Shown: positions 5,249 to 48,236, counted from the stretch's first letter. The stretch: 64,000 nucleotides of DNA from a virus (IMGVR_UViG_3300020156_000001:170321-234320), one strand, 5' to 3'. Notes: a model not told the origin generated them from the letters alone. Made by a program: numbers and translations.

Positions 5249-5313
5249 TTGGCGTCCTCATGTGATTACTCATGTTGTTCTAACATGGAACCTGCAGCTG
5301 TCAACCATAAATG

Positions 5314-5341
5314 GAAACAGGAACCCAAAGGTTCCTGTTTC
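5314..5341 (-). terminator. 12-bp stem hairpin (GAAACAGGAACC/GGTTCCTGTTTC, loop CAAA)
   Basis: Perfect inverted repeat. On the minus strand it is followed by ATTTAT. Lies 3' of the tRNA-like gene. Only a partial U-tract, so possibly an attenuator or operator. Confidence 0.4.
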
Positions 5342-5555: not shown

Positions 5556-5589
5556 TCTCACGCGGTTATAGTCGCGTCGACTGGATGCG

Positions 5590-6642: not shown

Positions 6643-6697
6643 TCTCCTTAAGTTGATGTCCTATACATGCTAATATAGGACACCATTTGTGTCAACT

Positions 6698-14469: not shown

Positions 14470-14584
14470 CGTGTCCTTATGTTTGCGCCAACATAACTTA
14501 GGTTATCAGTTTGTCAACCGCAATTCAACTAGTTGAAGTTATCGCAAGTTGGCTTTAAATACGGTTGTATCTTTGGAGAATGAA

Positions 14585-16381: not shown

Positions 16382-16901
16382 GATTTAGGGCGTCGATAAA
16401 TTCAATGCCATGTAGTTCACAACCTGGAAGAACCATGGACTTGAGATCATCAACAAGTGCGGTGAGCCCAAGCTCCTTACACTTGAGACCCTTCCAAACG
16501 GAAACTCCATTATAGAGTTCTTCATAGTGTTCAACAGTGACTTTGTGGTGTTTGAGGCCACGAAGCCACTTTTGTTCACTCTTTGAACCACGTTCGCCAA
16601 CTCTGCTTAGAAGTTCCCAGAAAGGAACCCCAAGTTCCTTTGGCATTCCGTGAACACCATGGAACATGGAAAGATCCATACCAAACGCCCCAATGTCTTG
16701 GGCGATCATATCAAAATCTCTGCCGTTGCGGAAAGTGACTAAGTGGAGTTCCACTTGCTTGTGGTGTTCCTCAACCCATCGCTGGAGAAAAAAGCTGTTC
16801 GGCCCATGGATAAGAGTTGAGTCGATATCCACTCCAATCGCTTTGTGAGCGTTTAGTTTTGGGTGGTAAAAGAAACTCTTGGGCGATTCTGCAAGTGTCA
16901 T
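16371..16901 (-). CDS. HAD-superfamily phosphatase-like protein
   Basis: N-terminal IGVDIDSTLIHG carries the HAD motif I DxDxT. Confidence 0.55.
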   Translation of the reverse strand: MTLAESPKSFFYHPKLNAHKAIGVDIDSTLIHGPNSFFLQRWVEEHHKQVELHLVTFRNGRDFDMIAQDIGAFGMDLSMFHGVHGMPKELGVPFWELLSRVGERGSKSEQKWLRGLKHHKVTVEHYEELYNGVSVWKGLKCKELGLTALVDDLKSMVLPGCELHGIEFIDALNLND

Positions 16902-16948
16902 GTGTTCTCCTTATTCCACTGTTATAACAGGAAATCAGGAACTGTCAA

Positions 16949-20005: not shown

Positions 20006-20119
20006 AATTCGATCTCCGTTTACAAGCTTAATCTAACACAGATAGCAAGTTTGTCAAACGCTAAAACCAGTTTCTGGAATGCAATAAATAGATGAAATTA
20101 TGTCCGGAGACCCGCTCTT

Positions 20120-23100: not shown

Positions 23101-23773
23101 AAAGCATGGCGTTCTCAGCAAGGGCGCGGTAGCATTGGCTGTTGGGGATACTTTCACACTTGCGGATCTTCTCGCTAATACCGTCACATACACCAGCATC
23201 TCGTTTAAAACAGATCCTGATTCCTTTGACTTTGATGTACAAAGCGATGTGTTTACTTCCAAGGGCAACACGTTTGATATCAAGCTACGTGCCGTAAACA
23301 ATCCACCTTGGATTTGTGTAAACACGGGTATGTTGGTATTCGAACAGGAAACCAAGGCAGTAACTCTGGACATGCTACAGATGTGCGATGTGGATATGGA
23401 CCGTGATAAGATTGCGGACTTTGATCCAGAAAGTGCAGAAGACCTTTCTCCACTGGTTTATCCGCTTGGTGAAGTTATCAACCCATCGGAAGTCGATGGC
23501 AGTGGTCGCATAAACAAGGATGTTCTCATCGAGTTCCCAGGTGTTAAGTACAAGTTCACGTTTACTGTAAAAGCGGGTTCTGCCCGTGCTATTGTTCGTG
23601 ACCAAAATGGTGCCACACTTGCAAGCTCGATCTGTGCAACATCAGCAAGTGGCGTGGTTGTTATGGAGTTTAGTCCTCCAGTCAGCAGCACACAGATCAA
23701 TTGCCAAGTAATTGAAAATTGTGTCCCAGGTGCAGTTGATCCGGATTGGACATTTGACCTCGCAAAAGCCTAA
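20120..23773 (+). CDS. giant repeat protein (1217 aa) with about 10 cadherin/VCBS-like beta-sandwich repeats
   Basis: A roughly 100-aa unit recurs with the pattern G.[ILV].Y.[HP] ... D.F.F.V.D ... [ILV].[ILV] ... PP.[ILV]. Examples: GKLRYVPNDSNHETTEDLFKFEVVDG ... IKIKLLDTPPEIIINE and GKITYEQDCSDTPVDTFEFSVEHS ... IQLIKNLPPVIEINE. Confidence 0.7.
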   Translation: MALVKPPNIKSPITVNATGDTPITKTFIEWKSNSATGSLAATKIQYTFLGLSPSIGAVTKGGAPVFQFTQADLNSPGVINYTPDRSNKKTLDVVMRLRVTDLTDGDSDTFPVTIRYSLPDLAPEGSVGPLTVEEDGQATVTTAQINFVDLFDAPNAVFIEIQAWPVHGDMLFNGKLVGPSSAVKITMADVIAGKLAYKHNGDEATEDHLFFKVRDTKNKWSGITVGEQTEDVASVYDMPINIVLSDIPLKVVNKGPAEVVQCEEVTIGPELLSADDEDDGDLTLTWKLSKLPLHGILKKNGTPMTVGTTWTDSDISSGKITYEQDCSDTPVDTFEFSVEHSKEKLENVSFPIQLIKNLPPVIEINELQVEKCNTGIPAEVNIKITDPEGLLPKDIKLKYAPNTPETPRPKHGMIGINGKTGIPGVTEFTYADILAGNVHYIHDCTDHDPATDEWWFTVYDGGHEITVKLPIVIIFKDDLPPYLTQNVEHFVERNDEVSWKIDKLDFTDDDTEYPKVFFELVTLPEHGELFINGLPAAEGQKIARSDWDDIEFRYVAGAPDNSVTEDRAMFKLYDEKNTVDDLAIVFKFPPPPTVCPEVLNNFITTAYTLKKVISEIDMFASNEGIDSTEFVWTLKKAPVYGDLSVGTVKLVDVLPTKPDPADPPVANTWTSKDIEDMQFSYQHLRDAPFTDEFEFSVTNGFCAVQGKAIIKFIPGLNIDINKVLEVDQGFTPSVTPGLIDETYLLSSSGSVSDPGLLLYTVKTLPTVGTLYLDDYPVALSATSYTFSQQQINDGKLRYVPNDSNHETTEDLFKFEVVDGIEKREGVFKIKIKLLDTPPEIIINELVVGELTCGSILEVKHLKVEDDQSSPSELVFTLLSIPQYGELLKSNVPMAIGDTFTYGDVINGAMGYCETEEGALLDSFDFTLTDKGGNEVTPLHFPIKIIPPPPPELVNDGLTMEPCTVRAITINMLDVKNLRTTFNRAGMVFKVTKAPKHGVLSKGAVALAVGDTFTLADLLANTVTYTSISFKTDPDSFDFDVQSDVFTSKGNTFDIKLRAVNNPPWICVNTGMLVFEQETKAVTLDMLQMCDVDMDRDKIADFDPESAEDLSPLVYPLGEVINPSEVDGSGRINKDVLIEFPGVKYKFTFTVKAGSARAIVRDQNGATLASSICATSASGVVVMEFSPPVSSTQINCQVIENCVPGAVDPDWTFDLAKA

Positions 23774-23782
23774 GGAGCTAGG

Positions 23783-24904
23783 ATGACTGCTTATTTTAAG
23801 ATCCACAAGCTTCCCGCTCTAGGCTTGCTTATGAAAAATGGAATCCCACTTCAGGTGGGATCCAAGTTCACTCAAAGCGATATCAACGAAAATCGTATCA
23901 CTTATCGTCACACTGCGATAACTGGTCAGAACGCATTGGACTCGTTTGATTTTACGCTTTGGGATTCCGAGCTTGGTGCCATTACAACTTCCTCTTATGG
24001 TCCATGTATGCCACCTAGAGATATTGAAACCCCTGCTGATGGTGTGTTTCGTTTTGCTATCTCTATCCTAAATGTGCCACCGATCAACACGGTTACACCG
24101 GATACGCTTGAACTGCTTGAAACCGAAACCCTTACTTTGACAATGGGTATCTTTAACGTGGTCAACGCGGGATTTACTCCTGATCAAGTTATCCACACCC
24201 TGCGCAAGCCACTATCTCACGGATATATCACATTGCGCGGTAAACGCTCATCCACGTTTACTCAAGCCGATGTAAATGCAGGTGACGTAAAGTATGTGAA
24301 CACGCACGTAGGCACTGGTATCGAACGTATTGAAGTAACATCATGCAACTTGCGTAGCGGCTGCATTGATTTTGATTTTACCATCAACATTTTGGAACGT
24401 TTCAAGATTACCGGCGACAACGTTATCTACGTAAAGACGGGCAGCCGTTTTGTTTGGGAATTTACAGCAAATCGTCCATCAGTGCTTTGGTCACTATCCG
24501 GTGGAACTGAGGAACGTCCACCATATGCAACGGAACGTGACCTCTCAATCATAGGTTGGTCTTCCTATGCAATGTCAAGCGATCAACCCTATGATAGCGA
24601 AGGCCGTGGTCCGGGTTATGATAAGTTGTTCCGCAACGTAAGAGAGACATTGTATTGGGATGGTGGGCTTCCAAAGGGAATATATTTGAGCAACATTGGT
24701 TACATGACCTGCTCACTTCGTAACCCGCCAAGTCTTGCAGGAAGCCAACATTGGACAATCCCAAACACTCCGGGTGAATATCCGTTTGAGATGATTGCCT
24801 TTGATGCCACAACTGGCCAAATGGATTCCCGTAAATATATGCTAGTCGCGACCATGTCTGGTTTCAGCGGCAGTGGCCTAAGCTCGGAAAGTAAAGATCT
24901 ATGA
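23783..24904 (+). CDS. repeat protein (373 aa) with cadherin/VCBS-like repeats
   Basis: NRITYRHTAITGQNALDSFDFTLWD and GDVKYVNTHVGTGIERIEVTS. Stop overlaps the next gene's start. Confidence 0.65.
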   Translation: MTAYFKIHKLPALGLLMKNGIPLQVGSKFTQSDINENRITYRHTAITGQNALDSFDFTLWDSELGAITTSSYGPCMPPRDIETPADGVFRFAISILNVPPINTVTPDTLELLETETLTLTMGIFNVVNAGFTPDQVIHTLRKPLSHGYITLRGKRSSTFTQADVNAGDVKYVNTHVGTGIERIEVTSCNLRSGCIDFDFTINILERFKITGDNVIYVKTGSRFVWEFTANRPSVLWSLSGGTEERPPYATERDLSIIGWSSYAMSSDQPYDSEGRGPGYDKLFRNVRETLYWDGGLPKGIYLSNIGYMTCSLRNPPSLAGSQHWTIPNTPGEYPFEMIAFDATTGQMDSRKYMLVATMSGFSGSGLSSESKDL

Positions 24905-27900
24905 ATTTACACGAACACGCCGTCATTGAAGAATATGACAAGTACGCGATCTTTGAATTGACCAAGATTCCAACACGTGGTAACCTGCTTTTGGATGGCG
25001 TTATCATGAAGGTTGGTAGTCGCTTTACTCAAGGCGATCTACGTAACGGTAATCTCAAGTACAAGCATACGGCAAACGAAGGTATGGCCAAGATCGCTTA
25101 TGATGCGTTCTTCTTCAGAGTTCCAATCAATGACAAAGCTGTTGTTGATGAAAACACCAAGTACAGCAAATGTTTGCCTGTAAGTGGTGGCCCAAAGGGC
25201 GGTGAATTTAAGTTCCCAATTATCATCACTGTGCTTCCTTATCCTCAGGAACTTCGCAATGTTGAAATAAACATTATGGAAGACCAAACAGTTTGCTTGA
25301 ACAAAGGTCACTTGTTCTATTCTTCTGATACAAAAGAAGTTCAGCAGTATTTTAAAAAGCCTGATGTTCAGATTGAAAAGGGCGGCAACGAAGCTTTTTA
25401 CTTTTGGAAGCGTTTTGCTGGCGATGTAAGCTTTGAAAACGTAAGCAAAAATGCCCCACCAAGCAGTGATGCCCACACTTGGGCATATAATGCGGAAACC
25501 CGCGGCATCTACAACATCAAGAATACTTCCAACTACACTGGTATGGTAACAACTAGAACCAGTGAAAGCTTTATGATGGCTTCTACAATGAGTTCCAATG
25601 CGGCGGATGACGACGTTATTGGTATGGTTGTAGCTTATGCGGAAGAAGATGGCGTTCCTACCACAATCAGCGTTGTTCGTTCCGGTGGCTGGAATGGAAC
25701 CGGTGCAAGTACCCTTACTTGGGCTATTATCCAAACCAAGGGCAACAATCGTACTATTCTAAAGAACGGAAGCGATACAGCTAAGAACCTATTGGGTAAC
25801 ACCAAGGGCCAAGCTTGGGACAAACTTGGATATTCACGTGTTGAGGTAAAGCGCGAAGGTACTAAAATTATTGCCAAGTGCAGCCAGTTTAGCGGCGCAA
25901 CAAATGGCGCACCAAATGCGGTAACTGCAATCGATGATTCCACAACTATGGAATTCACATTGCCCGCACCATTTAACTTGCCTTGCCAATACGGTCTAAG
26001 TGCGATGTCTCAGGCCGGCGCCACATTTGATGATATTGAATGGGCTGAGTTGCCTTATCCTCCGGCAGATCCACCAGAGCCGGATCCTACTTTGGATCCT
26101 ATGTTCGAACGTTTTCCAATTACCTATACCGTAAGCAGCAAGTCGAGCGAAGCATCCGCTGAGTTCCTTCTCAACGGAAAGCCGATGAAGCCCGGCGATA
26201 CCTTTACAAATGGTGACATATCAAATGGTTTGATTTGCGTAAAGGGCAAAAACGCAGGCGCTGGTGCAGAGTTCTTCTCTTTCTCAGCATGTGTGAACTC
26301 GGTAAAATGCACAAGCGGAACATTCAAGGTTAAGGTAACTCCTTGGCCATATCCAAAGATGGAAAAGAATTCCGCTACTATGGAAGAATGCTCGGAAATC
26401 ACAATCAACGATAAGAACATGTTGTTCACAGTTGAATTTGGTTCCACTGATTCCGATATCAAGATTACTCTTAATGAAACGCAAACAGCCGCTGACAATC
26501 CAGATGGTCGTGTCGAGGTTATTCCTAAGACATTCACTATGGCCGATGTTAAGGCTGGCACAGTACGACTCAAGCACGCTTGTGATACTGTGGTGTGGAC
26601 TGAAAAGCTTACATTTGATGTATGCACGAACCACAATAAGTGCGTGAGCAAGCCATTCTACGTTAAGATCACTCCAATCCCAGTTGAAGAAGAGCCTGCA
26701 CCCGATAACATTCAAGTTAGCGAACAGGGTTGCGTTTACAAGCTAAACTTCTACGGTGTTTGGGCTCCAGTTGGTGATTGCGGTCTTTGGGCTGATCTAA
26801 AGGGTCGCGTATTGCCTGAGCCTAAAAATGAACCCACTGGTAAGATCCTATACGTAAAGCACGCGCTTCCTGAACCCGTAACTTTGGTTGCTTTGCCAAA
26901 GCCAGAGAAACCAACTGAAAACAAGTGGTTTAAGAGTCCAGTTCAACTGCCTGCACAACCTGAACCATCAGATGGTTGTGAGCCGTTGCCACCGGAACCA
27001 ACACCAGCCCAGCTACCAACCGAGCTACAAGACTACATTATTGAAATGGAAGCTTGGGGTGATTATGGTGCAGGTCCTCCACTGTTTGACGTTATTGCAA
27101 CACAAGCCGTTGGTGGTATGAAGTGGATTGCCCGTGATGAACCAATCTCCGATCTAAAGGAGCATGGTCAAAAGGGTCGTCAATACTTTAGCTGGCGTGT
27201 TCCTGCGGCAGTTTGGGGCAATGGTCGTGACATTGTTATCGACTATGTTCAAAACGAACCTCCTGGTGCCGCAACAGACCGTAACATGTACTTGTACTGG
27301 GTAAAGGTCAACGGTAAGCTTTATGACTTTGGCGGTTCTGGCCGTTATATTGATCGTGCGGATGTTGAACGCCGTGGTCTAAACTATGACCATTGCCGTT
27401 GGACTATTTCGGATGATTTCCCTCTCCCACCATACCAGCTTCCTGCTCCAGTACCTGCGGAAAAGCCTGATACAGTTGCCAAGCAAAAGGTTCCTGCAAA
27501 ATGCTTTACTGATCCAAAGACCGGTACTAAGTGGATCACAGACCAAAACGGTGTATATCATCCAGTTGGAAAGCCAACGGATAAGTTGGAAGACTTTGAT
27601 GCTACCCCGCTTATCAAGACTCAACCATTCCTAGTTGAAGTGGAAGATCTTGCAAGTGTTCCAGCGGAATGGCCTGGTCCGGTTCTACACAAGCCAACAA
27701 ACAGCGTTTACACGAAGGTCAACGACGAATACGTTCACGTAAAGCAGCCGTTTACTGAATCTTATAAGCTGGATGAATTCCAGTTTATTGGAGCCAACGA
27801 GTTCTGGCTACAGCATGGCGCAACGTTTGACTTCTTCTTGTTCAGCAACCGCTTCTACGTGCGTTTCGATATTATGGGTGAATATGGTCACTCGATTATC

Positions 27901-28866
27901 GAACAATCCAACCCGATCATCATGGATCTTGGTGGATCGTTGGTTGGTAGTGGTGCAAGCATTTTGGGCAATCGTACAAACAACTACAATAACCAAAACC
28001 GCACATCACGCATTCCAAATGCGATGGGAATGTGGCCACGTCGTTACTGTCAGGTGGTTTCGCCAATCACTACAATGTGGGACGGTATGATCCAAAACAG
28101 CACAAGCATGCCATACTATCATGACAGGAACAACAATGGTATGAACCCATACCATCACGGCACTTACTTGATCAAGCTCGCGGGTACTGAATCCTATGCA
28201 GGCTTTGTTGCAAGTCAGCGTCCAAAGTTGGTACCCGAGCGTTGGACCGGAACAAAGTTCTGGAACCCTGATACAAAGAAGGGCTTTGGTCTAGTAAAGA
28301 ACCAAAAGGTTTGGCATGATATGACCACTGTTTGGTCACACAGCGGCTATGGTAGTGCTCCTAGCCAGATGGAAGGTGTTCGTAACAACGGTTATGGTAC
28401 TCACACACAGGCTATTGCCTACGGTGGTATCGAATTTGGAACTTATAATCCTTGGCTACATTTTGAGTCTTGGAAGATTCCTCAGAACACTGCATTCAAC
28501 CCACCGGAAGCTCCACGTGGTTGGTGCAATGGTATGCTTACGTTCCTAGATTACTCCTCAATCTACGACTCCAAGGAAATGCGCAATGGTGGTCCTGTTG
28601 AATCATCTCCACCGCGTAAGGACTACACAATGGAGTTCAAGGTTCGCGGTTATGATATCGCAACAGGCGAGGAAAAGTTCCGCACGTATCGCGTTCACTG
28701 GAACGCAACGGGTACGAACAAAAAGGGACAAACAAAGGCAACCACAGATGCAACGACGACAGGACTAACTGGATTCCTGCCGCCGAAGCCAAAGACAGCG
28801 GTTTGCTACTTTGATGACTTTAACGTCCCAGGCAACTGCCGTATTTTGGACGATAAAGGAAAGTAA
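24901..28866 (+). CDS. giant protein (1321 aa): N-terminal cadherin/VCBS-like repeats plus a distinct W/Y/G/N-rich C-terminal half
   Basis: GNLKYKHTANEGMAKIAYDAFFFRV at the N-terminus. The C-terminal 600 aa is non-repetitive and aromatic-rich. Confidence 0.65.
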   Translation: MNLHEHAVIEEYDKYAIFELTKIPTRGNLLLDGVIMKVGSRFTQGDLRNGNLKYKHTANEGMAKIAYDAFFFRVPINDKAVVDENTKYSKCLPVSGGPKGGEFKFPIIITVLPYPQELRNVEINIMEDQTVCLNKGHLFYSSDTKEVQQYFKKPDVQIEKGGNEAFYFWKRFAGDVSFENVSKNAPPSSDAHTWAYNAETRGIYNIKNTSNYTGMVTTRTSESFMMASTMSSNAADDDVIGMVVAYAEEDGVPTTISVVRSGGWNGTGASTLTWAIIQTKGNNRTILKNGSDTAKNLLGNTKGQAWDKLGYSRVEVKREGTKIIAKCSQFSGATNGAPNAVTAIDDSTTMEFTLPAPFNLPCQYGLSAMSQAGATFDDIEWAELPYPPADPPEPDPTLDPMFERFPITYTVSSKSSEASAEFLLNGKPMKPGDTFTNGDISNGLICVKGKNAGAGAEFFSFSACVNSVKCTSGTFKVKVTPWPYPKMEKNSATMEECSEITINDKNMLFTVEFGSTDSDIKITLNETQTAADNPDGRVEVIPKTFTMADVKAGTVRLKHACDTVVWTEKLTFDVCTNHNKCVSKPFYVKITPIPVEEEPAPDNIQVSEQGCVYKLNFYGVWAPVGDCGLWADLKGRVLPEPKNEPTGKILYVKHALPEPVTLVALPKPEKPTENKWFKSPVQLPAQPEPSDGCEPLPPEPTPAQLPTELQDYIIEMEAWGDYGAGPPLFDVIATQAVGGMKWIARDEPISDLKEHGQKGRQYFSWRVPAAVWGNGRDIVIDYVQNEPPGAATDRNMYLYWVKVNGKLYDFGGSGRYIDRADVERRGLNYDHCRWTISDDFPLPPYQLPAPVPAEKPDTVAKQKVPAKCFTDPKTGTKWITDQNGVYHPVGKPTDKLEDFDATPLIKTQPFLVEVEDLASVPAEWPGPVLHKPTNSVYTKVNDEYVHVKQPFTESYKLDEFQFIGANEFWLQHGATFDFFLFSNRFYVRFDIMGEYGHSIIEQSNPIIMDLGGSLVGSGASILGNRTNNYNNQNRTSRIPNAMGMWPRRYCQVVSPITTMWDGMIQNSTSMPYYHDRNNNGMNPYHHGTYLIKLAGTESYAGFVASQRPKLVPERWTGTKFWNPDTKKGFGLVKNQKVWHDMTTVWSHSGYGSAPSQMEGVRNNGYGTHTQAIAYGGIEFGTYNPWLHFESWKIPQNTAFNPPEAPRGWCNGMLTFLDYSSIYDSKEMRNGGPVESSPPRKDYTMEFKVRGYDIATGEEKFRTYRVHWNATGTNKKGQTKATTDATTTGLTGFLPPKPKTAVCYFDDFNVPGNCRILDDKGK

Positions 28867-31126: not shown

Positions 31127-32845
31127 TTACTTGCCCGACTTTTCAGCCTTGATGCCGGCCAAACGCTGAAGCTCTTCCGGATTGTAGCTTTCAACCGGTG
31201 CTTTGGGCGTTGGAACGCTTTGCACTTCTTCTTCGACTTGCTCAGCATCGTCAAAGTCGAATGTGCTTGCCGGCACAACACCAGCGAGACCATTCTTCAG
31301 ATCAAAGCCAGCGGCACCAACAATTGCATCAACAAGCGGAGCCTGTGTGCGATAGTTTAGCAGGGCGTTGGTAAGATCCTGTGGAACATTTCCAGCCGAA
31401 CCGCCGCCAACTGTTGCGCCACCATTTGCACCAAGACCCGAAATGCTGACCACACGAGCCGACTTTACTGCGGCCATTGGCTTTGCAAGTTCAGCAACCA
31501 ACTGCGGTGCAGCTTCGATTGCTGCAAGCTTGATACGCAGGGCGATCTGCTCTGGGCTCAAAGCGTTGGCAGCATCAGCAAGCGCACGTTCACCAGCAGC
31601 ACGGACTTCGTTTTCACGCTCGAGAACATCTGCAAGCGTTTTACGTGCCTGGGCCTGCAAATCAGCTGCTTCAGCTTCCGCCTTTGCGCGAACAGTAATG
31701 CCTGCGCTTGTACGTTCAGCTTCCTTGGTCGCTTCAATAACAGCAACCTGACGATCACGTTCCGCCCTGGCAATTGCTTCCTCGGTGATAACGTTCTGCG
31801 CTGCCTTAACAGCGTTTGCACGAGCTTCGTCGGCCTTTGCCTGTGCAAGCGATTCAGCTTCCGAACGCTCGTTGACCGCGATCTTGGCCGCCTGTTCAGC
31901 AATACGAATTGCTTGCGTATTGGTGATTTCAGCTTCCTGACGGGCACGAGACGATGCTACGCGAGCAAGTTCAGTTGCCTGTTCCGCCTCGATTGTTGCA
32001 ACATCCGCTTCACGCTTGCGATCAGCACGTTGCTTTGCAAGTTCAGCTTCCTGTTCGGCACGCCGAGTTTCAACTTGCTTTTCCTGATCAAGACGGGCGA
32101 ACTCGTCCTGTTGCTTGATGGTCAGCGACTCCTGGTTCGCTTCAAAATTGCGCTTTTCAATAGCAACGCGAGCTTGCTGCTCGATTTCGTTACGTTCACG
32201 CGCCTTTTCCTGCGTTAGCTTGGCTAGGTTGGTGAGACCTTCAGCATCAAACGCATTGTTTGGGTTGAGGAACTTCTGGTCCGTCTGGTCAAGCTTGGTA
32301 AGCGAAACGCTTTCCAGTTCGAGACCGTTCTTTTCCAAGTCCGCAGCAACCGTGTTTTGCACGTTCTGTACAAACTCAGCGCGTTGTTCGTGCAAGTGCT
32401 GCATATCCATGCCAGCTGCAACCGAGCGAAGCGCGTCAACAAACTTGTCTTCAATGATCTGACGAAGCGCGTCAGGATTCATCGTTTTTGTACCAAGTGT
32501 TTGCGCGGCCAGTGCAATTGCATTGGTGTCAGGCTTTACACGAACAAAGAAGGTCGCGCCCACGTCTGCTCGCATACGATCCTTGGTGATCAAGGCGTCT
32601 GTGCCAGTACGAGTAAGCTCGATCTTGAGCGTTTGCATGTTAACTTCAAGCGTTTCATGCAGGATTGGGAAGATCAACGCACCGCCGTTGATCACGACCA
32701 GCTGACCTGTAAAGCCCGTACGCACAAACGCACGTTCCTTTGAAGCTCGCTTGTAAAGTCGGGAAACCATCAGGCCGACGATCAGGATTGCCACAAAAGC
32801 AATCACAATAATCATACCCAAGGTCACAAGGTTTGTATCAAACAT
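31127..32845 (-). CDS. flotillin / SPFH (band-7) family protein, YqiK-like, with long EA-rich coiled-coil
   Basis: N-terminal TM helix. SPFH-domain region (... LVVINGGALIFPILHETLEVNMQT ...). Then an extended EA repeat coiled-coil (AEQEAELAKQRADRKREAD ...). C-terminal flotillin-like tail. Confidence 0.85.
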   Translation of the reverse strand: MFDTNLVTLGMIIVIAFVAILIVGLMVSRLYKRASKERAFVRTGFTGQLVVINGGALIFPILHETLEVNMQTLKIELTRTGTDALITKDRMRADVGATFFVRVKPDTNAIALAAQTLGTKTMNPDALRQIIEDKFVDALRSVAAGMDMQHLHEQRAEFVQNVQNTVAADLEKNGLELESVSLTKLDQTDQKFLNPNNAFDAEGLTNLAKLTQEKARERNEIEQQARVAIEKRNFEANQESLTIKQQDEFARLDQEKQVETRRAEQEAELAKQRADRKREADVATIEAEQATELARVASSRARQEAEITNTQAIRIAEQAAKIAVNERSEAESLAQAKADEARANAVKAAQNVITEEAIARAERDRQVAVIEATKEAERTSAGITVRAKAEAEAADLQAQARKTLADVLERENEVRAAGERALADAANALSPEQIALRIKLAAIEAAPQLVAELAKPMAAVKSARVVSISGLGANGGATVGGGSAGNVPQDLTNALLNYRTQAPLVDAIVGAAGFDLKNGLAGVVPASTFDFDDAEQVEEEVQSVPTPKAPVESYNPEELQRLAGIKAEKSGK

Positions 32846-37589: not shown

Positions 37590-38177
37590 ATGATTGCACT
37601 TCTTCAAATTTTGGGAGTTTTTGCAGCGGCATTGGGTTTTGCCGCAGCACTTACAAACCATCTCTTCCTAGGGATTCTCTTCCCAATCGGCGCCACACTC
37701 TTTTACATTGGCTATGTTCTGCGCAACCGTGCAACTGAACGTACCATTAGGGAAGCGCAAGCGGATGTTCGTACCCGTTATCCCGTTACTTCCATCTATC
37801 GTCCAATCGCGGCCACTGGTATGACCACACCACCGCCAATGCCAAACAAAACACCACGCCGTAAAGATGCACCGCTTCGTTCCGCAGTTATGTTGGATGA
37901 TGAACGCAAACGCCAGCAGCGTGATGAAGAAGAGCGTGATCGTCAGCGTCGCAACAATGACACCGTTTATACGGATAATTCGGCCGGCTGGATGATGATG
38001 ACTGGTGCGATGGATAACAGCCGGAATGATGATGACGATCGCAAAGTTGTAACTCCCTCATACAGTGAACCCAGCAGCTCAAGCAACGATTCCTATAGTA
38101 GCGGTTCCGATGGCGGCTATTCCGGTGGCGGCTATTCCGGTGGCGGTGATGGCGGTGGCGGAGGTGGTGGCGACTAA
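37590..38177 (+). CDS. membrane protein with Gly-rich C-terminal tail
   Basis: Two N-terminal TM helices. Basic/acidic central region. C-terminus SDGGYSGGGYSGGGDGGGGGGGD. Confidence 0.5.
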   Translation: MIALLQILGVFAAALGFAAALTNHLFLGILFPIGATLFYIGYVLRNRATERTIREAQADVRTRYPVTSIYRPIAATGMTTPPPMPNKTPRRKDAPLRSAVMLDDERKRQQRDEEERDRQRRNNDTVYTDNSAGWMMMTGAMDNSRNDDDDRKVVTPSYSEPSSSSNDSYSSGSDGGYSGGGYSGGGDGGGGGGGD

Positions 38178-38183
38178 AAGGTT

Positions 38184-38212
38184 GACATCTCTAGTTGGGT
38201 CTGTTTAAATAC
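38184..38212 (+). promoter_or_regulatory. sigma70-like promoter (TTGACA-17-TTAAAT) for the tmRNA precursor
   Basis: The -35 and -10 hexamers with 17-nt spacing lie directly upstream of the acceptor-piece sequence. Confidence 0.5.
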
Positions 38213-38221
38213 GGATGAAGC

Positions 38222-38281
38222 TGTTGATACAATCTCAATAGTTGCTGCAGGACTGGGGAGCGTTACCCCACGCCTCCACCA
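38222..38281 (+). ncRNA. ssrA: two-piece (permuted) tmRNA, 3' acceptor piece, ending ... CGCCUCC-A-CCA
   Basis: UGGGG-AGCGUUA-CCCCA hairpin (T-arm analogue) at 38254..38270. Acceptor 3' strand CGCCUCC at 38271..38277. Discriminator A. Encoded CCA at 38279..38281. The 5' boundary is approximate. Confidence 0.75.
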
Positions 38282-38383
38282 CAAGCAGATGCGCACTTTC
38301 GTGCGTGGCGGGTAAACGGTTAAATCCAATCCGGCGGGCACCGAGCGGTGTCCTGGTAGCGGTCGCTACAATCTGCTTATGAT

Positions 38384-38563
38384 GGGGGCGAAGTAGGATC
38401 GACTGGGCGACGAACGGTGCGAGTAGGTTTCCGGCATGATACCGCCGTTATCGGGTCGAAAAAAGTAAATGCAAACGATAACTCCGTTGCATCCCAGCCG
38501 GTAGCTCTCGCTGCCTAAGTTGGATGAGCTTTAGTGGATACGCTTGGAAACAGGACCACTCTT
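38384..38563 (+). ncRNA. ssrA: two-piece (permuted) tmRNA, 5' coding piece with tag reading frame ANDNSVASQPVALAA*
   Basis: 5' end GGGGGCGAAGUAGGAUCGACUGGG closely matches canonical tmRNA 5' ends. GGGGGCG pairs with the upstream CGCCUCC, including a G3·U wobble. Tag ORF GCA AAC GAT AAC TCC GTT GCA TCC CAG CCG GTA GCT CTC GCT GCC TAA at 38471..38518. Confidence 0.85.
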
Positions 38564-38588
38564 AAAACCGGCTTCGGCCGGTTTTTTG
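38564..38588 (+). terminator. intrinsic terminator (CCGGC-UUCG-GCCGG + U6)
   Basis: GC hairpin followed by TTTTTT. Confidence 0.8.
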
Positions 38589-42433: not shown

Positions 42434-43347
42434 TAAAATACCTCTTCGTTATGTGCCCAGCGAGAACCGGCAAATGTAATGCTTACGGGATAATAGGAAA
42501 CGTTGGTGCAAGTGAGCACTACCCAGTCTTCAACACCAATTGTTTCAATGTGACCGGACCAAACAATACGCATAAAGTTATCGGTGTTGGTGTCCTGGTT
42601 CAAATCAACACCAAGATCCATGATAGCTACGGAATATTGGTCCGCTGTGATATGAAGCGTGCCGGTGCGACGAACGTGCAAGTTGTTAATCATCTCGTCG
42701 GACTTCAAGGAGTAGTCCATGACAAAGCTATTGGACTGAGCCAATGGGTAGCGAACAACTTCATCGAGATTCAAAAACGTAACAATGTATTCGTCAGCCA
42801 TGTTGAACCCAGCTAGGCCCAAATCATCAAGATCAACTAGAATCGTGCTGTTGGGTGTGAACTGACTTGCTTTGTGTTTGACTGTGATTCCCTTATATGG
42901 AACGGCTTGAGAGTTACCATCGACGCCACGAATCAAAGTGGCCTTGCTCATTACACGACCACGCAAATCACCTGGCTCCGGACCATTACCAGACCAGCTC
43001 AACGGAATAACGCGGCCACCCGGAAAGTTATCAGGATCGCCCATATAAGCGAAACGGTAGCTGTTGGTATCATCTGCGCGTTGTGTGGCTGTGATACGAG
43101 TAAGTGGTCCCGTAGTTACAACGTGATCGTGCATGGTGTGAATAAGATCAAACTCAGTGATTAAGCGCACGTTTTGGTATGGGAAAATGGATCCACCGCG
43201 ATAGTTAATGCGCTGGAGATTTGGAGCACCGATAAAAACTTCACCAGTATCGGTAGTCATTGCGATTTCGCCTTCAGCAAGGGCTTGAGGCAAATTGTCC
43301 TTGGCACCGCGACGAACTTGGATACGGCTGATTTGGGTAACAGGCAT
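42433..43347 (-). CDS. putative tail/baseplate structural protein (304 aa)
   Basis: ATGA overlap with the fibre gene. Beta-rich composition. Confidence 0.5.
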   Translation of the reverse strand: MPVTQISRIQVRRGAKDNLPQALAEGEIAMTTDTGEVFIGAPNLQRINYRGGSIFPYQNVRLITEFDLIHTMHDHVVTTGPLTRITATQRADDTNSYRFAYMGDPDNFPGGRVIPLSWSGNGPEPGDLRGRVMSKATLIRGVDGNSQAVPYKGITVKHKASQFTPNSTILVDLDDLGLAGFNMADEYIVTFLNLDEVVRYPLAQSNSFVMDYSLKSDEMINNLHVRRTGTLHITADQYSVAIMDLGVDLNQDTNTDNFMRIVWSGHIETIGVEDWVVLTCTNVSYYPVSITFAGSRWAHNEEVF

Positions 43348-43387
43348 CGATCTACTCCTCTGTTTCCAATATTTATTGGAAAAGTAG

Positions 43388-43416
43388 TTGACGCACGCAT
43401 AGGCTTTTGCTATAAC
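43388..43416 (+). promoter_or_regulatory. sigma70-like promoter (TTGACG-17-TATAAC) upstream of the tRNA-like gene
   Basis: Near-consensus hexamers. The predicted transcription start coincides with the 5' end of the tRNA-like helix. Confidence 0.5.
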
Positions 43417-43423
43417 AGGATTG

Positions 43424-43527
43424 TGAGCAGATGGTATATGCCGGTGTGCCCCCAGTTAGTACAGCGAGAGCCCGTAGGGAGAGTGCTCGAAACCCGGGAG
43501 ATATGAGTTCGAATCTCATTCTGCTCA
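43424..43527 (+). tRNA. tRNA-like gene with no encoded CCA and an oversized body, possibly an intron-containing tRNA or tRNA-like element
   Basis: 8-10 bp terminal helix TGAGCAGA/TCTGCTCA. Canonical T-arm ATGAG-TTCGAAT-CTCAT. U8. Possible 6-bp/4-nt D-arm. About 30 nt more than a standard tRNA between the D-arm and the T-arm. Confidence 0.4.
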
Positions 43528-43603
43528 CACTGAAACGCCTAAACATGCGATTCCGAAAAAGCGATAGTGGTCTGTAGTACCACAAACGCCAAAGGAGAAA
43601 CAA

Positions 43604-43984
43604 ATGTTTTACGGTGCTTTCAACTCTGCAGAGGACGTATTTTCTAACTTCACCGTCTCTGACGATGATCGTAAGGATGTAAAGATTCTGTGGGCTTCTT
43701 ATGAGAACGAAAACTACGAAGGCTCTGCTGGAGTGGTGTTTCTCAAAGAAGGCAAGATATTTTCTGTGTACGGTGGGCACTGCTCATGTCACGGGCTGGA
43801 AGGTCAGTGGGAACCACAGGAAATAACTCTTGCAGAAATGCGGCATTATTTGGACAATAAGGCAACCCCTTATGGTACAGATTTTGGTGCTGCATACCAG
43901 CAGATTCTCATGCTGTTGGACAATGTGGATACTTCGGTACTCACGGATGACCAGATAGTAATGATGCTGCGCTTAATAGGCTAG
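43604..43984 (+). CDS. hypothetical protein (126 aa)
   Basis: AAAGGAGAAACAAATG start context. Confidence 0.5.
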   Translation: MFYGAFNSAEDVFSNFTVSDDDRKDVKILWASYENENYEGSAGVVFLKEGKIFSVYGGHCSCHGLEGQWEPQEITLAEMRHYLDNKATPYGTDFGAAYQQILMLLDNVDTSVLTDDQIVMMLRLIG

Positions 43985-44015
43985 GAGAAATCCTAGCCTA
44001 TTTCCATATCTGTGG

Positions 44016-44076
44016 TTGACACCTTCCTATGTTGTGCTAAATTCAGAACATAGGAACAAGCAAACGGAGATCGAAG
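44016..44076 (+). promoter_or_regulatory. conserved promoter/operator motif P1 (TTGACA ... TTCCTATGTT ... CAGAACATAGGAAC ... GGAGATCGAAG ATG)
   Basis: Near-identical modules occur at 57080..57139 and 57486..57540. Confidence 0.55.
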
Positions 44077-44325
44077 ATGGCAAACGTAACTTTCCAGTAT
44101 AATCCTTCTGACGAGCCTGATCTCACTGATGATGAGTACAAGGTATTCGTTGATGGTGTTGAAGTTCCCTTCGCCATCCAGGTCGGCGGTAAGAACGCCT
44201 TTATCGTCAACGAATATTCTCCCAAAGATGAAAGCTTTTGGATGAAGCAGCACAAGATTTGCCCTTCGCTGCTCGTTGCAAAGGCCAAGGCTGAGATCCT
44301 GGCTCTCGCATACGTTGCAAAGTGA
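44077..44325 (+). CDS. hypothetical small protein (82 aa)
   Basis: Follows motif P1. Confidence 0.55.
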   Translation: MANVTFQYNPSDEPDLTDDEYKVFVDGVEVPFAIQVGGKNAFIVNEYSPKDESFWMKQHKICPSLLVAKAKAEILALAYVAK

Positions 44326-44335
44326 GGAACCACTG

Positions 44336-44761
44336 ATGGTTGAGTATCAAAGCGTTCGCACGTTTGTCGAAAAGTTTAAGCGTGGAATCTACGTGGATCC
44401 ACGCAGAGAAGTTCAAATCGAAGCTGGTTGGTATGACTGGTTTTGCCGCGAAACTTCACTTGCCGGCAAGACCAAGTTCCTCGGCGCCAAGGTAGTTCAA
44501 TTAAGCCTCAGCCCGATGATCGATCGGGACAACATGTATGTGATGTTCAAGAACAACTGCCCAGGTCATGGCACGCTTTACGACTCGTTCTCATTCTGCG
44601 ATATGAAAACGAATGATGTAAAGTATTGGATCACTCCTGCAAACGGTCATTTTGGTTCACATTATCGGAAGCCAGAGGTTTACGGCTACAACGGCGGCCA
44701 GAATCCAAAGGACAACTATTTCGACAACTGGCGTGAAGTCAGACAGTTTTTTGGGGTTTAA
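44336..44761 (+). CDS. hypothetical protein (141 aa)
   Basis: ATG at 44336 with GAGGA upstream. Confidence 0.5.
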   Translation: MVEYQSVRTFVEKFKRGIYVDPRREVQIEAGWYDWFCRETSLAGKTKFLGAKVVQLSLSPMIDRDNMYVMFKNNCPGHGTLYDSFSFCDMKTNDVKYWITPANGHFGSHYRKPEVYGYNGGQNPKDNYFDNWREVRQFFGV

Positions 44762-44762
44762 C

Positions 44763-44987
44763 ATGGACAAGATAACGGAAAAGTACGGCATCGCTCCTAT
44801 GCAGAAATGGATAGCTGCGGATGGTTCTGGCCATATGGTACAGGTTCTTGATGTTGTGACGTTTGAGAACCAAAGCGACGTGGTCGTCCAGGATCTTCGC
44901 CAGCCGGAAAAGGAACCATATCGCATTGATGCCTTCAAATTGGCAAAGGTTCGCTATGAACTTTGGGAAGACATTCCTGGGAGATAG
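44763..44987 (+). CDS. hypothetical small protein (74 aa)
   Basis: ATG 2 nt after the upstream stop. Confidence 0.45.
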   Translation: MDKITEKYGIAPMQKWIAADGSGHMVQVLDVVTFENQSDVVVQDLRQPEKEPYRIDAFKLAKVRYELWEDIPGR

Positions 44988-44990
44988 CCG

Positions 44991-45194
44991 ATGTTTGCAG
45001 TTAACGATATCGTGTTGACAAAGAAACCTGAACATGATGGATGCCGTAGTCATCTAAAGGTGGTCGCAGTTGGTGAAACCACTGTTGATGTGGTCAACAA
45101 GAACATTTTGGGTGCGGCTAAACCATTTACACTGTTACAGGATGAAGTTATCCTGCGCTCAGAGTTTCAAAACTGGTATAAAAACCAAAACTAG
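44991..45194 (+). CDS. hypothetical small protein (67 aa)
   Basis: GGGAGATAGCCG ATG context. Confidence 0.45.
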   Translation: MFAVNDIVLTKKPEHDGCRSHLKVVAVGETTVDVVNKNILGAAKPFTLLQDEVILRSEFQNWYKNQN

Positions 45195-45282
45195 TTTGCC
45201 AGTTAACTAAACTTTTAGACAGTGGTTGTTGGTCTCCTTTGGCTCCACTAATATGAGTGGATTGCTAGAGGAGATCGAACCA

Positions 45283-45570
45283 ATGCAACCACTACTCGAA
45301 AGCCTGCCCAACGGTGCTGTCGTTTACGACCGCTTTGAAACCGAAGTTGAAGGAAAGCCAGCGGAAGTTCTGCTTTGCTTTGTTCCAGGCAACGCGATGA
45401 CGCCGTTTGCCGTATGGCATCGTTTCAAGTACAACGGCGGCGCACTATTCTGGGGCAAGTTCTGGCCCGGCGTCGAAAACGAAACTGCGCTCCATTACTT
45501 CAAGGACCTGCGCAATCAGCGCAAGGCAAAGCTGTCGGTGGTTCAGCAAGCTGAAGCGGCCGCCCAGTAA
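45283..45570 (+). CDS. hypothetical protein (95 aa)
   Basis: GGAGATCGAACCA ATG at 45283. A longer alternative start exists. Confidence 0.45.
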   Translation: MQPLLESLPNGAVVYDRFETEVEGKPAEVLLCFVPGNAMTPFAVWHRFKYNGGALFWGKFWPGVENETALHYFKDLRNQRKAKLSVVQQAEAAAQ

Positions 45571-45611
45571 CCAGAACTGGTTGACAATTTAGACTCCTGT
45601 GTTATCTTTGA

Positions 45612-45836
45612 ATGGACAACACAGGAGTTTTCGTTTTGGTTAAGGCCCTTTATGTAATATTGGTAACAGCGGCCAATGGGCAAAGTGCCATTACGCCGGC
45701 TCCCTTCAACGTTGAGTACCCCACATTCGCACATTGCGTGGCTGCGGCACGGCAACTCCAACGCATTGAACCCACCAAGCGCAATACTTATGAATGCGCC
45801 AATTACCGTGGTTACAAGCAGGGAGAGATCAAGTGA
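45612..45836 (+). CDS. small protein with N-terminal signal/TM segment (74 aa)
   Basis: Hydrophobic N-terminus VFVLVKALYVILVTAANG. Confidence 0.4.
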   Translation: MDNTGVFVLVKALYVILVTAANGQSAITPAPFNVEYPTFAHCVAAARQLQRIEPTKRNTYECANYRGYKQGEIK

Positions 45837-46042
45837 GCCAGTGGACTCCTCCATCAGCGGGTAACAAGTTTAAGTCAGGCGATATTGTGATCATCGGCAA
45901 CATGGCCAACCGCCAGTTTGAAGTTGATCATGTTGAATCCACCCGCGTGTTTCTCAAGAATCCAACAGGTCGCCGACTGCTTGATGTTTCGGCAGCCCAA
46001 CTTATGCTGTTAAGCGATTGGAAGCGTATCTATGGCAAGTGA
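45833..46042 (+). CDS. hypothetical small protein (69 aa, GTG start)
   Basis: GGGAGAGATCAA GTG context. Confidence 0.4.
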   Translation: MSQWTPPSAGNKFKSGDIVIIGNMANRQFEVDHVESTRVFLKNPTGRRLLDVSAAQLMLLSDWKRIYGK

Positions 46043-46268
46043 CATTCATCCCAGCAAGTTCCACATTGTGGTGAAAAATCTGTTCGGCGGTATTGCCGTT
46101 TACGATTACACCAACAACGATCAGTTCATGATCTCATGTGTGGACGCTACACCGGAAAATCTTGTACTGGTGGAGAATGTTTACCGTTATGGTGGCCGAC
46201 AAGCTGTTGCTAAGATTGGTTCCATGTGTAGCCTCGAACCCTGGATTGTTTCAAATGGAAAAGCCTGA
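46032..46268 (+). CDS. hypothetical small protein (78 aa)
   Basis: Start overlaps the upstream stop. Confidence 0.4.
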   Translation: MASDIHPSKFHIVVKNLFGGIAVYDYTNNDQFMISCVDATPENLVLVENVYRYGGRQAVAKIGSMCSLEPWIVSNGKA

Positions 46269-46701
46269 ACTCGACACTTGGGTCAAGGTGACCACGGATT
46301 ATACCGATGCAAAGCATGGTCAGCATTGGGTTACCATGCGCCGGTATGAACATATTGGTAAGGTGGTCAAACTGCAGGAGTGGGAAGACTCCGAAGCTTG
46401 CTTTGGCCTTCTCACCAACGATGAAAACATGCGGTTGAAAACAATCAACATGAAGTTCGTCTCCAAGATCGAACAGCTCAAAACCGTAGATATTGCACAA
46501 GTTGACCTCACGCAGACTGTTGCGGAGGAAAAAGAACCCGAACGCAAGTTTGAGATCAAGAGTTCTCGCGGCGATAAGAAGTATACGGTCACCAAGGACA
46601 AGTTTTCATGGACTTGTACATGTGAGGCCGGTCAGCGTGGTCGCCGCTGCAAGCATGTGGCTGAAGCCCAAGCCCTTCTAAAGGCGGAAAAAGTTTCGTG
46701 A
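46255..46701 (+). CDS. hypothetical protein with C-terminal SWIM-like zinc finger (about 148 aa)
   Basis: SWTCTCEAGQRGRRCKHV shows the CxC ... CxH pattern. Confidence 0.45.
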   Translation: MEKPELDTWVKVTTDYTDAKHGQHWVTMRRYEHIGKVVKLQEWEDSEACFGLLTNDENMRLKTINMKFVSKIEQLKTVDIAQVDLTQTVAEEKEPERKFEIKSSRGDKKYTVTKDKFSWTCTCEAGQRGRRCKHVAEAQALLKAEKVS

Positions 46702-47453
46702 CACTTATCGACAACAAACCCGTTTACAACATCTTTCATCCTGCTCATGGTTTCCTGTTTGGGATGACAAAGGATTTCAAACCACAGTGGACCCATAATC
46801 TATCTGTACTGGATATGAGCAAGAAGTTTGCTTCTCAGAAAATACAGAATACCATCGATATGTTCTGGAAGTTTGCTGAGTTTGATCCGATTGCTGGGGA
46901 AACTTTCTTTACGATAAGGTTAGTCCCAGGGGCGGCCGTATATACGGTTGTGGATCTATTCACGCCCGCGCAACGTCTTGGGATAAAGGCGTTTTGCTTC
47001 CTATCTGAGAACTCGTGGTTTGAAAACATGGACATGTTTTACCACCGCGAAACACGAGACCTCTCACTTAGGCAAATTGCGAATCAGGCAGCTAAGAAGT
47101 CGTTTGATTGGTCCGAGGGAATGATTGCAGTTGTAAAGTTGGCGGACATTTGGTCGGAAGTAAGAGACAAAGTTCGTTCCAGAATAGCAACACCGTATAC
47201 TAAAAACGAGCTCCCAGATTATGAAACTATGTTTGTCGAAGCTTTTGAGGAGTATATCGACGAATCAATTCCCGATGGTGTTGAACCCCACTACGTGACT
47301 AGGCGCGCAAATATTCTGCTGTTCAAAAGCCGGCGTGAGCTTATGTTGTTCAAACTGGTGTGTCCATTAGAATTTGTTACTTTGGACATGAAAGCGACCA
47401 AAGCCGAACTTGCTGAATTTATGGCCGAGAATAAAATTGAGGTCATAAAATAA
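46698..47453 (+). CDS. hypothetical protein (251 aa)
   Basis: Intact ORF. Contains RELMLFKLV, faintly reminiscent of the LFKL family motif. Confidence 0.5.
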   Translation: MTLIDNKPVYNIFHPAHGFLFGMTKDFKPQWTHNLSVLDMSKKFASQKIQNTIDMFWKFAEFDPIAGETFFTIRLVPGAAVYTVVDLFTPAQRLGIKAFCFLSENSWFENMDMFYHRETRDLSLRQIANQAAKKSFDWSEGMIAVVKLADIWSEVRDKVRSRIATPYTKNELPDYETMFVEAFEEYIDESIPDGVEPHYVTRRANILLFKSRRELMLFKLVCPLEFVTLDMKATKAELAEFMAENKIEVIK

Positions 47454-48199: not shown

Positions 48200-48230
48200 C
48201 AGGAACAATTGCAAATAACAATTGTTCCTG
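48200..48230 (-). terminator. 12-bp perfect hairpin (CAGGAACAATTG-CAAATAA-CAATTGTTCCTG) between minus-strand genes
   Basis: Inverted repeat with an ATAGGAA box adjacent on the minus strand. Confidence 0.4.
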
Positions 48231-48236
48231 AATATG

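Follow-up and report, generated by a model that had tools for sequence, protein, structure and literature searches.

A stem-loop around the -10 element in repeated promoter and ribosome-site cassettes of a Sinorhizobium-type jumbo phage

Why would a phage set nearly the same block of promoter-like sequence, inverted repeat, and ribosome-binding site in front of one gene after another? Such blocks recur in a 64,000-nt stretch of viral DNA (IMGVR_UViG_3300020156_000001:170321-234320; the window is this whole stretch), where a sequence-only reading had described three on the plus strand, at 44016-44076, 57080-57139, and 57486-57540. We recover all three (M1, M2, and M3), each running from TTGAC to the base preceding an ATG. 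Sequence comparisons argue with high confidence that these modules are sigma-70-type promoter/Shine-Dalgarno (SD) cassettes with a selected stem-loop. With moderate confidence we read them as early-gene expression cassettes, similar to the promoter-early stem-loop (PeSL) cassettes of other phages, in which a stem formed in read-through RNA would mask or insulate translation.

A family of promoter and ribosome-site modules

The topoisomerase large subunit encoded in the window was compared by protein search: its counterpart in Sinorhizobium phage Phosso (469 kb) shares 87.8% identity with it, and that in Agrobacterium phage Atu_ph07 (490 kb) shares 62%. Relatives were detected solely via protein search and distant blastn; megablast of 43000-47000 against the phage collection returned no DNA-level match. 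On these similarities, the window comes from a giant Sinorhizobium-type jumbo phage that is kin to Phosso, with Atu_ph07 farther off.

The modules share the layout GGTTGAC-N17-(TGn)TAnnnT, a purine-rich leader of 15-35 nt, and GGAGATCGAA-N0-3-ATG. In M1-M3, the -35 element TTGAC(A/G) is followed by a 16-nt spacer and the -10 element TA(A/G)(A/T)TT, which has TGn before it; GGAGATCGAA begins 15-25 nt past the -10, with 0-1 nt left to the ATG. The family consensus is ctGGTTGACa-N8-ttcCT(g/a)TGtTAnnnT, and across the family pyrimidines make up 66% of the spacer and purines 70% of the leader. We counted 6 instances of the strict pattern TTGAC-N14-TGnTAnnnT in the window (0.09 expected) and 30 in the window plus 180 kb of Phosso (~0.5 expected), which bears out the -35-like TTGAC first noted in the modules. 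GGAGATCGAA, which had been called their invariant SD context, is present in 8 copies (0.12 expected), each 0-3 nt 5' of an ATG.

A generic sigma-70 scan of the window shows no enrichment (27 sites vs 24 expected), so a family-specific model is required. We made a position weight matrix (PWM) from the strict-pattern matches and took as cut-off the score that yields no site in a shuffled genome. Above it lie 36 sites, 8 in the window and 28 in Phosso 270-450 kb. The window members have their TTGAC at +44016, +45581, +57080, +57486, -20057, -14517, -5304, and -3128; -6695 (upstream of infC) and -16948 are probable extra members. All sites are correctly oriented, with an SD before the start codon and 25-47 nt between the -10 and that codon. 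This positional bias, found for every window copy, sustains the proposal that the block is a promoter element. A scan of IMG/VR for promoter and SD together (GGTTGAC-N35-58-AGGAGATCGAANATG) gave 37 loci, which added 99 non-redundant promoters. Because almost all of these loci come from giant contigs (462, 465, 436, 417, 277, 183, 125, and 115 kb), we regard the module as a clade-wide feature. An IMG/VR scan with the promoter half alone, whose 51 loci were mainly chance matches in unrelated contigs, was replaced.

The S. meliloti sigma-70 (RpoD) consensus is CTTGAC-N17-CTATAT (PMC2873474). The modules share its -35 hexamer, 17-nt gap, and TAnnnT-type -10, and they lie upstream of co-oriented genes, as sigma-70-type promoters do. 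Unlike the host promoters, they have GG ahead of TTGAC, extend the -10 with TGn, and combine a pyrimidine-rich spacer with a fixed leader and SD. A phage-specific sigma factor had been proposed to recognize them; we dropped this idea because the consensus is that of the host, and nothing in our analysis pointed to such a factor or to an operator protein. The modules presumably use host sigma-70 and fire early. Our literature search found no promoter analysis for the Atu_ph07/Phosso/AP-J-162 group (~0.4-0.5 Mb phages), and the paper on Sinorhizobium jumbo phage AP-J-162 (PMC11242549) nowhere mentions promoters. A gathering-score search of the window against Rfam matched only transfer-messenger RNA (tmRNA) and no family for the modules.

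The SD context is nearly invariant in the clade: GGAGATCGAA stands at 44066-44075, in 7 other window copies, and at IMG/VR loci L045 and L057-L091, with the variant GGAGATT at Atu_ph07 locus L092. Its fixed ATCGAA may be a target of a RegB-like nuclease (cut at GGAG), a recombination homology block, or part of the stem; extended SD pairing was dropped as its cause because these bases and the 16S tail do not pair in register. Several IMG/VR relatives have ATCACCTGTTTCT as their pairing spacer, close to the 16S rRNA 3' tail, GATCACCTCCTTTCT.

An inverted repeat around the -10 element

The 5' arm of the repeat lies in the -35/-10 spacer and is pyrimidine-rich and anti-SD-like (TTCCT/CTCCT/CACCT...), the -10 lies in the loop, and the 3' arm opens the transcript and often includes the SD. 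The elements of M1-M3, of a module at 45581-45638 that was absent from the earlier list, and of the infC promoter are:

44016-44043, plus strand: M1 promoter (PWM 32.8), with -35 TTGACA at 44016-44021, TG at 44035-36, and -10 TAAATT at 44038-44043
44024-44033, plus strand: M1 5' arm TTCCTATGTT, within the promoter spacer
44047-44056, plus strand: M1 3' arm AACATAGGAA, part of the leader (44047-44079)
44066-44075, plus strand: M1 SD context GGAGATCGAA; ATG at 44077 opens gene 44077-44325, encoding an 82-aa ORFan
45581-45638, plus strand: module with -35 at 45581-45586 and -10 TATCTT at 45603-45608; TTG start at 45636, gene to 45836
45591-45603, plus strand: its 5' arm AGACTCCTGTGTT, which overlaps the first base of the -10
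45618-45630, plus strand: its 3' arm AACACAGGAGTTT, which includes the SD GGAG at 45624-45627
57080-57142, plus strand: M2 module (PWM 33.1), with -35 TTGACG at 57080-57085 and -10 TAGTAT at 57102-57107
57093-57101, plus strand: M2 5' arm TTCCTATGT, with a weak 3' partner AGGAATAGAAG at 57110-57120
57129-57138, plus strand: M2 SD context GGAGATCGAA; ATG at 57140, gene to 57484 (114 aa)
57486-57543, plus strand: M3 module (PWM 34.0), with -35 at 57486-57491 and -10 TAGATT at 57508-57513
57494-57504 and 57514-57526, plus strand: M3 5' arm TTCCTGTTCTG and 3' arm CAGAACATAGGAA
57531-57540, plus strand: M3 SD context GGAGATCGAA; ATG at 57541, gene to 57738 (65 aa)
6654-6695, minus strand: infC promoter, with -35 TTGACA at 6695-6690 and -10 TAGCAT at 6672-6667, which is the loop
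6685-6673 and 6666-6654, minus strand: 13-bp infC stem, TGGTGTCCTATAT/GTATAGGACATCA

The inverted repeat had been ascribed to all three of M1, M2, and M3, and this is true in part. In M1 it is perfect over 10 bp, and the hairpin (-13.8 kcal/mol, z -2.56 against dinucleotide shuffles) is the only individually significant one among the three. The other two repeats are imperfect. M2 has the 5' arm, followed downstream only by AGGAA/ATAGAAG, and its hairpin is insignificant alone (z -0.07); M3 has the 3' arm, preceded by TTCCTGTTCTG in place of the described partner (z -1.57), and its minimum free energy (MFE) fold pairs GUCUUC with GGAGAU. The best example in the window is the 45581 module, in which ACTCCTGTGTT pairs with AACACAGGAGT to form an 11-13 bp stem with the SD inside it (-21.6 kcal/mol, z -4.82, 0/200 shuffles). 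The hairpin listed as a recurrence upstream of infC indeed has the same architecture (z -3.61). Its SD, AAGGAG, lies downstream of the stem, and the gene product carries IF3_N and IF3_C domains. The infC gene (6076-6642, minus strand) has two candidate starts after this SD, ATG at 6642 and GTG at 6633; bacterial infC genes are autoregulated through an unusual start codon.

For the fold test, each site was divided into U (the spacer and the first 3 nt of the -10, 20 nt) and D (the next 37 nt), and native U+D sequences were compared with chimeras U_i+D_j. In the window and Phosso, the mean MFE is -12.0 kcal/mol for native sequences vs -9.7 kcal/mol for chimeras (0/20,000 permutations). The independent IMG/VR set of 99 sites gives -13.7 vs -10.7 (0/20,000 permutations), and permutation within genomes gives -13.3 vs -10.7 (0/5,000), with the native arrangement better in 7/7 genomes. 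A reversed-half control also folds more weakly than the native arrangement. At least 5 bp enclose the -10 hexamer at 122 of 135 sites.

Changes in one arm are matched in the other. Compensatory variants include TTTCTG/CAGAAA, TTTGTG/CACAAA, TTTGCT/AGCAAA, and CTTGCTG/CAGCAAG. Changes on both arms of the infC orthologs leave intact a stem of 13-15 bp whose 6-7 nt loop holds the -10 (TGGTGTCCTATAT/GTATAGGACATCA in the window vs TTGGTTATCCTGTTA/TAACAGGATAACCAA in Phosso). A register-matched subset, pre-selected for pairing and thus illustrative only, has 87.9% of its cells paired, double changes in 6 of 15 pairs, and a covariation score of 0.238 vs 0.140 in shuffles (0/500). Together, these comparisons argue for a genuine inverted repeat that selection maintains. 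The family consensus itself, a pyrimidine spacer facing a purine leader, accounts for part of the complementarity, because the chimeras are already fairly stable.

Three promoters of Atu_ph07 have 12-14 bp stems in which the anti-SD is the -10 hexamer plus the following bases (TAATCTCC...GGAGATTA and TATTATCTCCT...AGGAGATA), and the 5' arm again lies upstream of the predicted start. They appear to follow the same logic in another register, with a promoter-internal 5' arm.

Proposed action on read-through RNA and its alternatives

How could a stem that encloses a -10 element act? Since the 5' arm lies upstream of the presumed start, ~7 nt past the -10, a module's own transcript could not contain it, and the hairpin would form only in read-through RNA. 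RNA from the module's own promoter would lack the 5' arm and be open to ribosomes; RNA arriving from upstream would contain both arms and fold. About half of the modules would have their SD masked by the fold, and the hairpin would more generally insulate each gene against upstream transcription. Translation of early genes would then be tied to their own promoters, giving equal dosage in tandem promoter arrays, and early genes would be kept silent on late read-through RNA. The suggestion of a hairpin that hides the SD is thus half right: the selected hairpin is able to do so, but would be absent from a transcript begun at the module itself.

Four results are consistent with a role in read-through RNA. 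Folding is better on the sense than on the antisense strand (-13.2 vs -12.1, p=0.0006, n=135; p=0.002 in the first set, the window and Phosso). Loops span 6-32 nt (median 15 nt), bulges are common, and G-U pairs are present. T-runs after the stem are rare, as detailed below. Finally, hairpins are stronger behind a co-oriented upstream gene (mean -13.9, n=80) than at divergent sites (median -8.1, n=8; one-sided p=0.003), where the weak ones include -20057, -3128, and -14517 of the window. We expressed SD accessibility as the probability of an unpaired GGAG: 0.28 for read-through RNA, 0.65 for the own transcript, and 0.41 after shuffling of the upstream 64 nt; the corresponding values for M3 are 0.33 in read-through RNA and 0.97 in its own transcript. 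Pairing of the SD with the 5' arm is seen in the MFE folds of 19 of 35 and 52 of 95 sites. M3, which begins 2 nt past the stop codon of the M2 gene, and the 45581 module, whose upstream gene ends at 45570, have no terminator between themselves and that gene.

Several observations weigh against this account. In Atu_ph07 (100 kb, 15 candidate promoters) the native-vs-chimera permutation test is insignificant. Strand asymmetry is weak in the IMG/VR set alone (p=0.067), and the tandem-vs-divergent test is post hoc, its 8 divergent sites including one outlier and one likely false positive. Masking is moderate, with an unpaired probability below 0.2 in 57 of 127 modules. Nor is it instance-specific: a foreign promoter half still gives 0.32 (p=0.07), which makes masking at the SD core a trait common to the family and leaves the site-specific covariation to the flanking stem. 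Little read-through should reach M1 and M2, which lie behind terminators. M1 and infC have the SD outside the stem, and the M2 hairpin is insignificant, so SD masking cannot be the whole story; the stem may insulate more broadly, through pausing or processing or by protecting upstream 3' ends. We infer, moreover, both the start site ~7 nt past the -10 and the early timing.

The classical view of PeSLs, which we consider unlikely here, would make the stem-loop a terminator or attenuator for upstream RNA polymerase and the block a recombination site, with SD pairing incidental. The PeSLs of RB49/phi1 share the parts list of the modules, and one of their stem-loops lowered downstream lacZ as strongly as rrnB T1 (PMC2839356). 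The greater strength of hairpins behind co-oriented genes, the exclusion of the SD from the M1 and infC stems, and the swapping of ORFan cassettes between the window and Phosso also suit this view. The stems themselves do not. At least 5 T within the 8 nt after the stem are found in only 2 of 122 cases; the stems are not G+C-rich and, with their median loop of 15 nt, resemble neither intrinsic terminators nor the GN-loop-CN stems of PeSLs, so that the 122 module stems checked do not qualify as intrinsic (Rho-independent) terminators. About half of the 3' arms extend into the SD. Separate canonical terminators just upstream of M1 and M2 would make a second one redundant:

43977-44005, plus strand: terminator-like hairpin TAGGCTAGGA-GAAA-TCCTAGCCTA, then TTTCC, directly upstream of M1
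57046-57071, plus strand: intrinsic-terminator-like hairpin of 11 bp, then TTTTTTG, directly upstream of M2

The first overlaps the stop codon of gene 43604-43984 and, with its short T-run, went unflagged in a generic terminator scan; the second has the features of an intrinsic terminator.

We give little credence to a palindromic operator, at which a dimeric phage or host repressor over the -10 would shut early promoters off. An inverted repeat centered on the -10 occupies a classic repressor position, and its arms do have a consensus, TCCT(A/G)TGTT / AACA(N)AGGA. Yet the arms co-vary from site to site without a constant half-site sequence, and their spacing and register relative to the -10 vary (12 registers). 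Tolerance of G-U-type pairs and the better folding of the sense strand likewise speak against an operator, as does the link between hairpin strength and upstream gene orientation, which is irrelevant to a DNA operator. The same variation in arms, register, and loop length argues against the dedicated operator protein or translational repressor that the sequence-only reading had envisaged.

It is very improbable that the complementarity has no function and is a by-product of the pyrimidine spacer, the purine SD leader, and recent duplications of entire modules. The base composition of the two halves, chimeras that reach about -10 kcal/mol, SD masking that is almost as strong with a foreign promoter half, and a 16-mer identical in M1 and M3 would all be expected on this explanation. 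However, native sequences beat all 45,000 permutations, those within genomes included, and the reversed-half control is weaker; there are several distinct compensatory variants, and an orthologous pair has changed on both arms. A DNA-level role, in which supercoiling extrudes a cruciform or single-strand hairpin with the -10 in its loop and so tunes promoter strength, is scarcely tenable: some stems are perfect (at infC of the window and of Phosso, 13-15 bp around a 6-7 nt loop that is exactly the -10 hexamer), but long loops, bulges, and G-U pairs prevail among the modules, sense and antisense strands differ, hairpins vary in strength with the orientation of the upstream gene, and extrusion would wreck a -35/-10 geometry that is conserved at 17 nt. 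An N4-type hairpin promoter was dropped, its stem and loop size being wrong and canonical -35 and -10 elements being present. We thus favor a stem that works on read-through RNA, and we infer from the above an action at the RNA level with an effect on translation.

Driven genes, neighboring elements, and known systems

The genes behind M1 and M2/M3 have no tblastn match in Phosso 270-450 kb, although their flanking genes are 50-75% identical; the syntenic Phosso stretch carries other module-led ORFans. Conserved anchors are 43604-43984 (Phosso gp471), 45794-46701 (gp464/463), the PAS gene (gp452), and 58197-58640 (gp450). The conserved cassettes of ~60 bp mark, and probably mediate, ORFan swaps between related phages. 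Hyperplastic spots bounded by modules span 44077-45836 and 57140-57950 in the window vs 342.8-345.1 kb and 332.1-332.6 kb in Phosso. The small genes behind M1, M3, and the 45581 module have no Pfam or PHROGs match; the M2 gene has no Pfam match and a weak one to a PHROG of unknown function (E 0.0004). A regulon of small genes, as once suggested, is too narrow a description, since the driven genes also include infC, that of a CCA-adding enzyme, and others. The remaining family members and related elements of the window are:

3069-3128, minus strand: module (PWM 29.2) with -35 at 3128-3123, -10 TAAGTT at 3106-3101, GGAGATCGAA at 3082-3073, and ATG at 3071, gene to 2667; weak hairpin (z -0.61)
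20003-20057, minus strand: module (PWM 30.3) of gene 20005 to 18461 (CCA-adding/poly(A)-polymerase family), divergent from the cadherin-like gene 20120-23773; hairpin insignificant (z +0.64)
14464-14517, minus strand: weaker family member (PWM 19.9) upstream of gene 14466 to 13921; divergent, weak hairpin
5341-5314, minus strand: stand-alone terminator-like hairpin GAAACAGGAAC/GTTCCTGTTTC, which precedes the promoter at 5304 (element 5247-5341)
5304-5299, minus strand: TTGACA of that promoter (PWM 17.0), with a 56-60 aa open reading frame (ORF) behind
16899-16948, minus strand: probable member (PWM 15.1), TTGACA-N16-TATAAC, upstream of gene 16901 to 16371
45270-45285, plus strand: GGAGATCGAA-cca-ATG without its own promoter, at an internal gene of the M1-led cassette
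57739-57752, plus strand, and 2654-2666, minus strand: promoterless GGAGATCGAA copies of the same kind

Other places at which the arm sequences had been said to recur fared unevenly. The recurrence at 3127-3155 does reveal a family member (3101-3128, minus strand), which drives the gene from 3071 to 2667 and not the divergent DUF72 gene (3191-3952, plus strand) to which it had been assigned. That at 1861-1885 is a degenerate copy without a usable -10 (1861-1895, minus strand; TTGACAACTCTGGTTCCTATAAACTACAGTAGGAAC). It retains the family -35 and spacer and a 7-bp inverted repeat, lacks a proper -10, an SD, and an ORF, and lies at the end of a minus-strand operon facing convergent plus-strand genes. 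The recurrences at 48200-48230 and 5314-5341 turn out to be stand-alone terminator-like hairpins (48200-48231 and 5311-5341) that carry no promoter. Such hairpins form a second recurrent element after stop codons (48200-48231 and 5314-5341, minus strand; 43977-44005, plus strand). Their 3' arm and tail read (G)TTCCTGTTTCCAT or CCTAGCCTATTTCCAT, and the arm words AACAGGAAC / GTTCCTGTT are similar to those of the promoter hairpins but in reversed order.

The window (46.6% G+C) encodes a split T4-type topoisomerase II, ClpX, IF-3, a CCA-adding enzyme, cadherin-like giants, and a PAS protein, together with a permuted alpha-type tmRNA and tRNA-Ile(TAT). The tmRNA, at 38164-38564 (plus strand), is of the alphaproteobacterial type with the tag ANDNSVASQPVALAA (ARAGORN; Rfam 112.8 and 106.9 bits). 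The tRNA-Ile, with anticodon TAT, lies just downstream of infC at 5474-5565 (minus strand); its length of 92-93 nt is unusually great for tRNA-Ile, and it is conserved in Phosso (383344-383436). Cargo unusual for a phage comprises cadherin-like repeat proteins of 1217 and 1321 aa (20120-28866, plus strand), a multi-PAS protein that is sensor-like and lacks an obvious output domain (55305-56957, plus strand), and an SPFH/flotillin protein (31127-32845, minus strand), all of them conserved in Phosso.

PeSL cassettes are known from the T4-type phages RB49/phi1, T4/PST, and KVP40/nt-1, in which a sigma-70-like early promoter, a stem-loop, and SD+ATG are repeated in hyperplastic regions and linked to ORFan shuffling; termination and recombination are the proposed functions, and translation is never discussed (PMC2839356, PMC4122927). 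Like PeSLs, the modules combine a sigma-70-like early promoter, a superimposed stem-loop, an SD, and a start codon, are present in many copies per genome, and adjoin small ORFans that are swapped between related phages. PeSLs have an AT-rich tract upstream of the -35; in the modules, the 28 nt at that place are mildly enriched (61% A+T with an 'aaaa' run vs 55% in the spacer and the 32 nt past the -10). PeSL stems are compact (GN-loop-CN, A3-4G3-loop-C3T3-4, AGNA-loop-TCNT) and lie between or upstream of the boxes. In contrast, the module stem encloses the -10, places its 3' arm in the transcript or SD, and has neither U-tracts nor G/C runs, and the modules belong to an alphaproteobacterial jumbo phage of the Atu_ph07 group. 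This suggests that PeSL-type cassettes reach far past the T4-type phages and that their stem-loop may affect read-through translation, not (or not only) termination.

The T4 genes e (lysozyme), soc, 49, and I-TevI provide the precedent for translational masking in long transcripts. There the 5' strand of a helix that sequesters the SD is encoded by DNA with a late promoter inside it, so that upstream-initiated RNA folds and is poorly translated, and promoter-proximal RNA lacks the 5' strand (PMC3014915). As at gene e, the module promoter is positioned so that its own transcript, from the predicted start, would omit the 5' strand. The embedded promoters of T4 are late (TATAAATA, gp55) and serve a few single genes, whereas the modules are of the sigma-70 type and number well over 100 sites; unlike in gene e, the SD is inside the stem at only about half of these, and masking by the modules is predicted from sequence. 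A more tentative proposal is a clade-wide rule in which the untranscribed spacer/-10 of >100 host-type promoters holds an anti-SD-like sequence, in some relatives almost identical to the 16S rRNA 3' tail, and translation occurs only from own-promoter RNA. If true, it would generalize the single-gene trick of T4 lysozyme to insulation and dosage control and account for the invariant SD context GGAGAT(C/T).

The modules provide a usable promoter/leader/SD model for early-gene annotation in the Atu_ph07/Phosso/AP-J-162 group and could serve as compact, strong, insulated expression parts for Rhizobiaceae. As phage early promoters of a PeSL-like sort, they are ordinary in kind; the hairpin geometry and the likely translational role are new. 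What the modules appear to unite, in an alphaproteobacterial jumbo-phage clade, is a PeSL-like cassette and a stem that encloses the -10 and reaches the SD.

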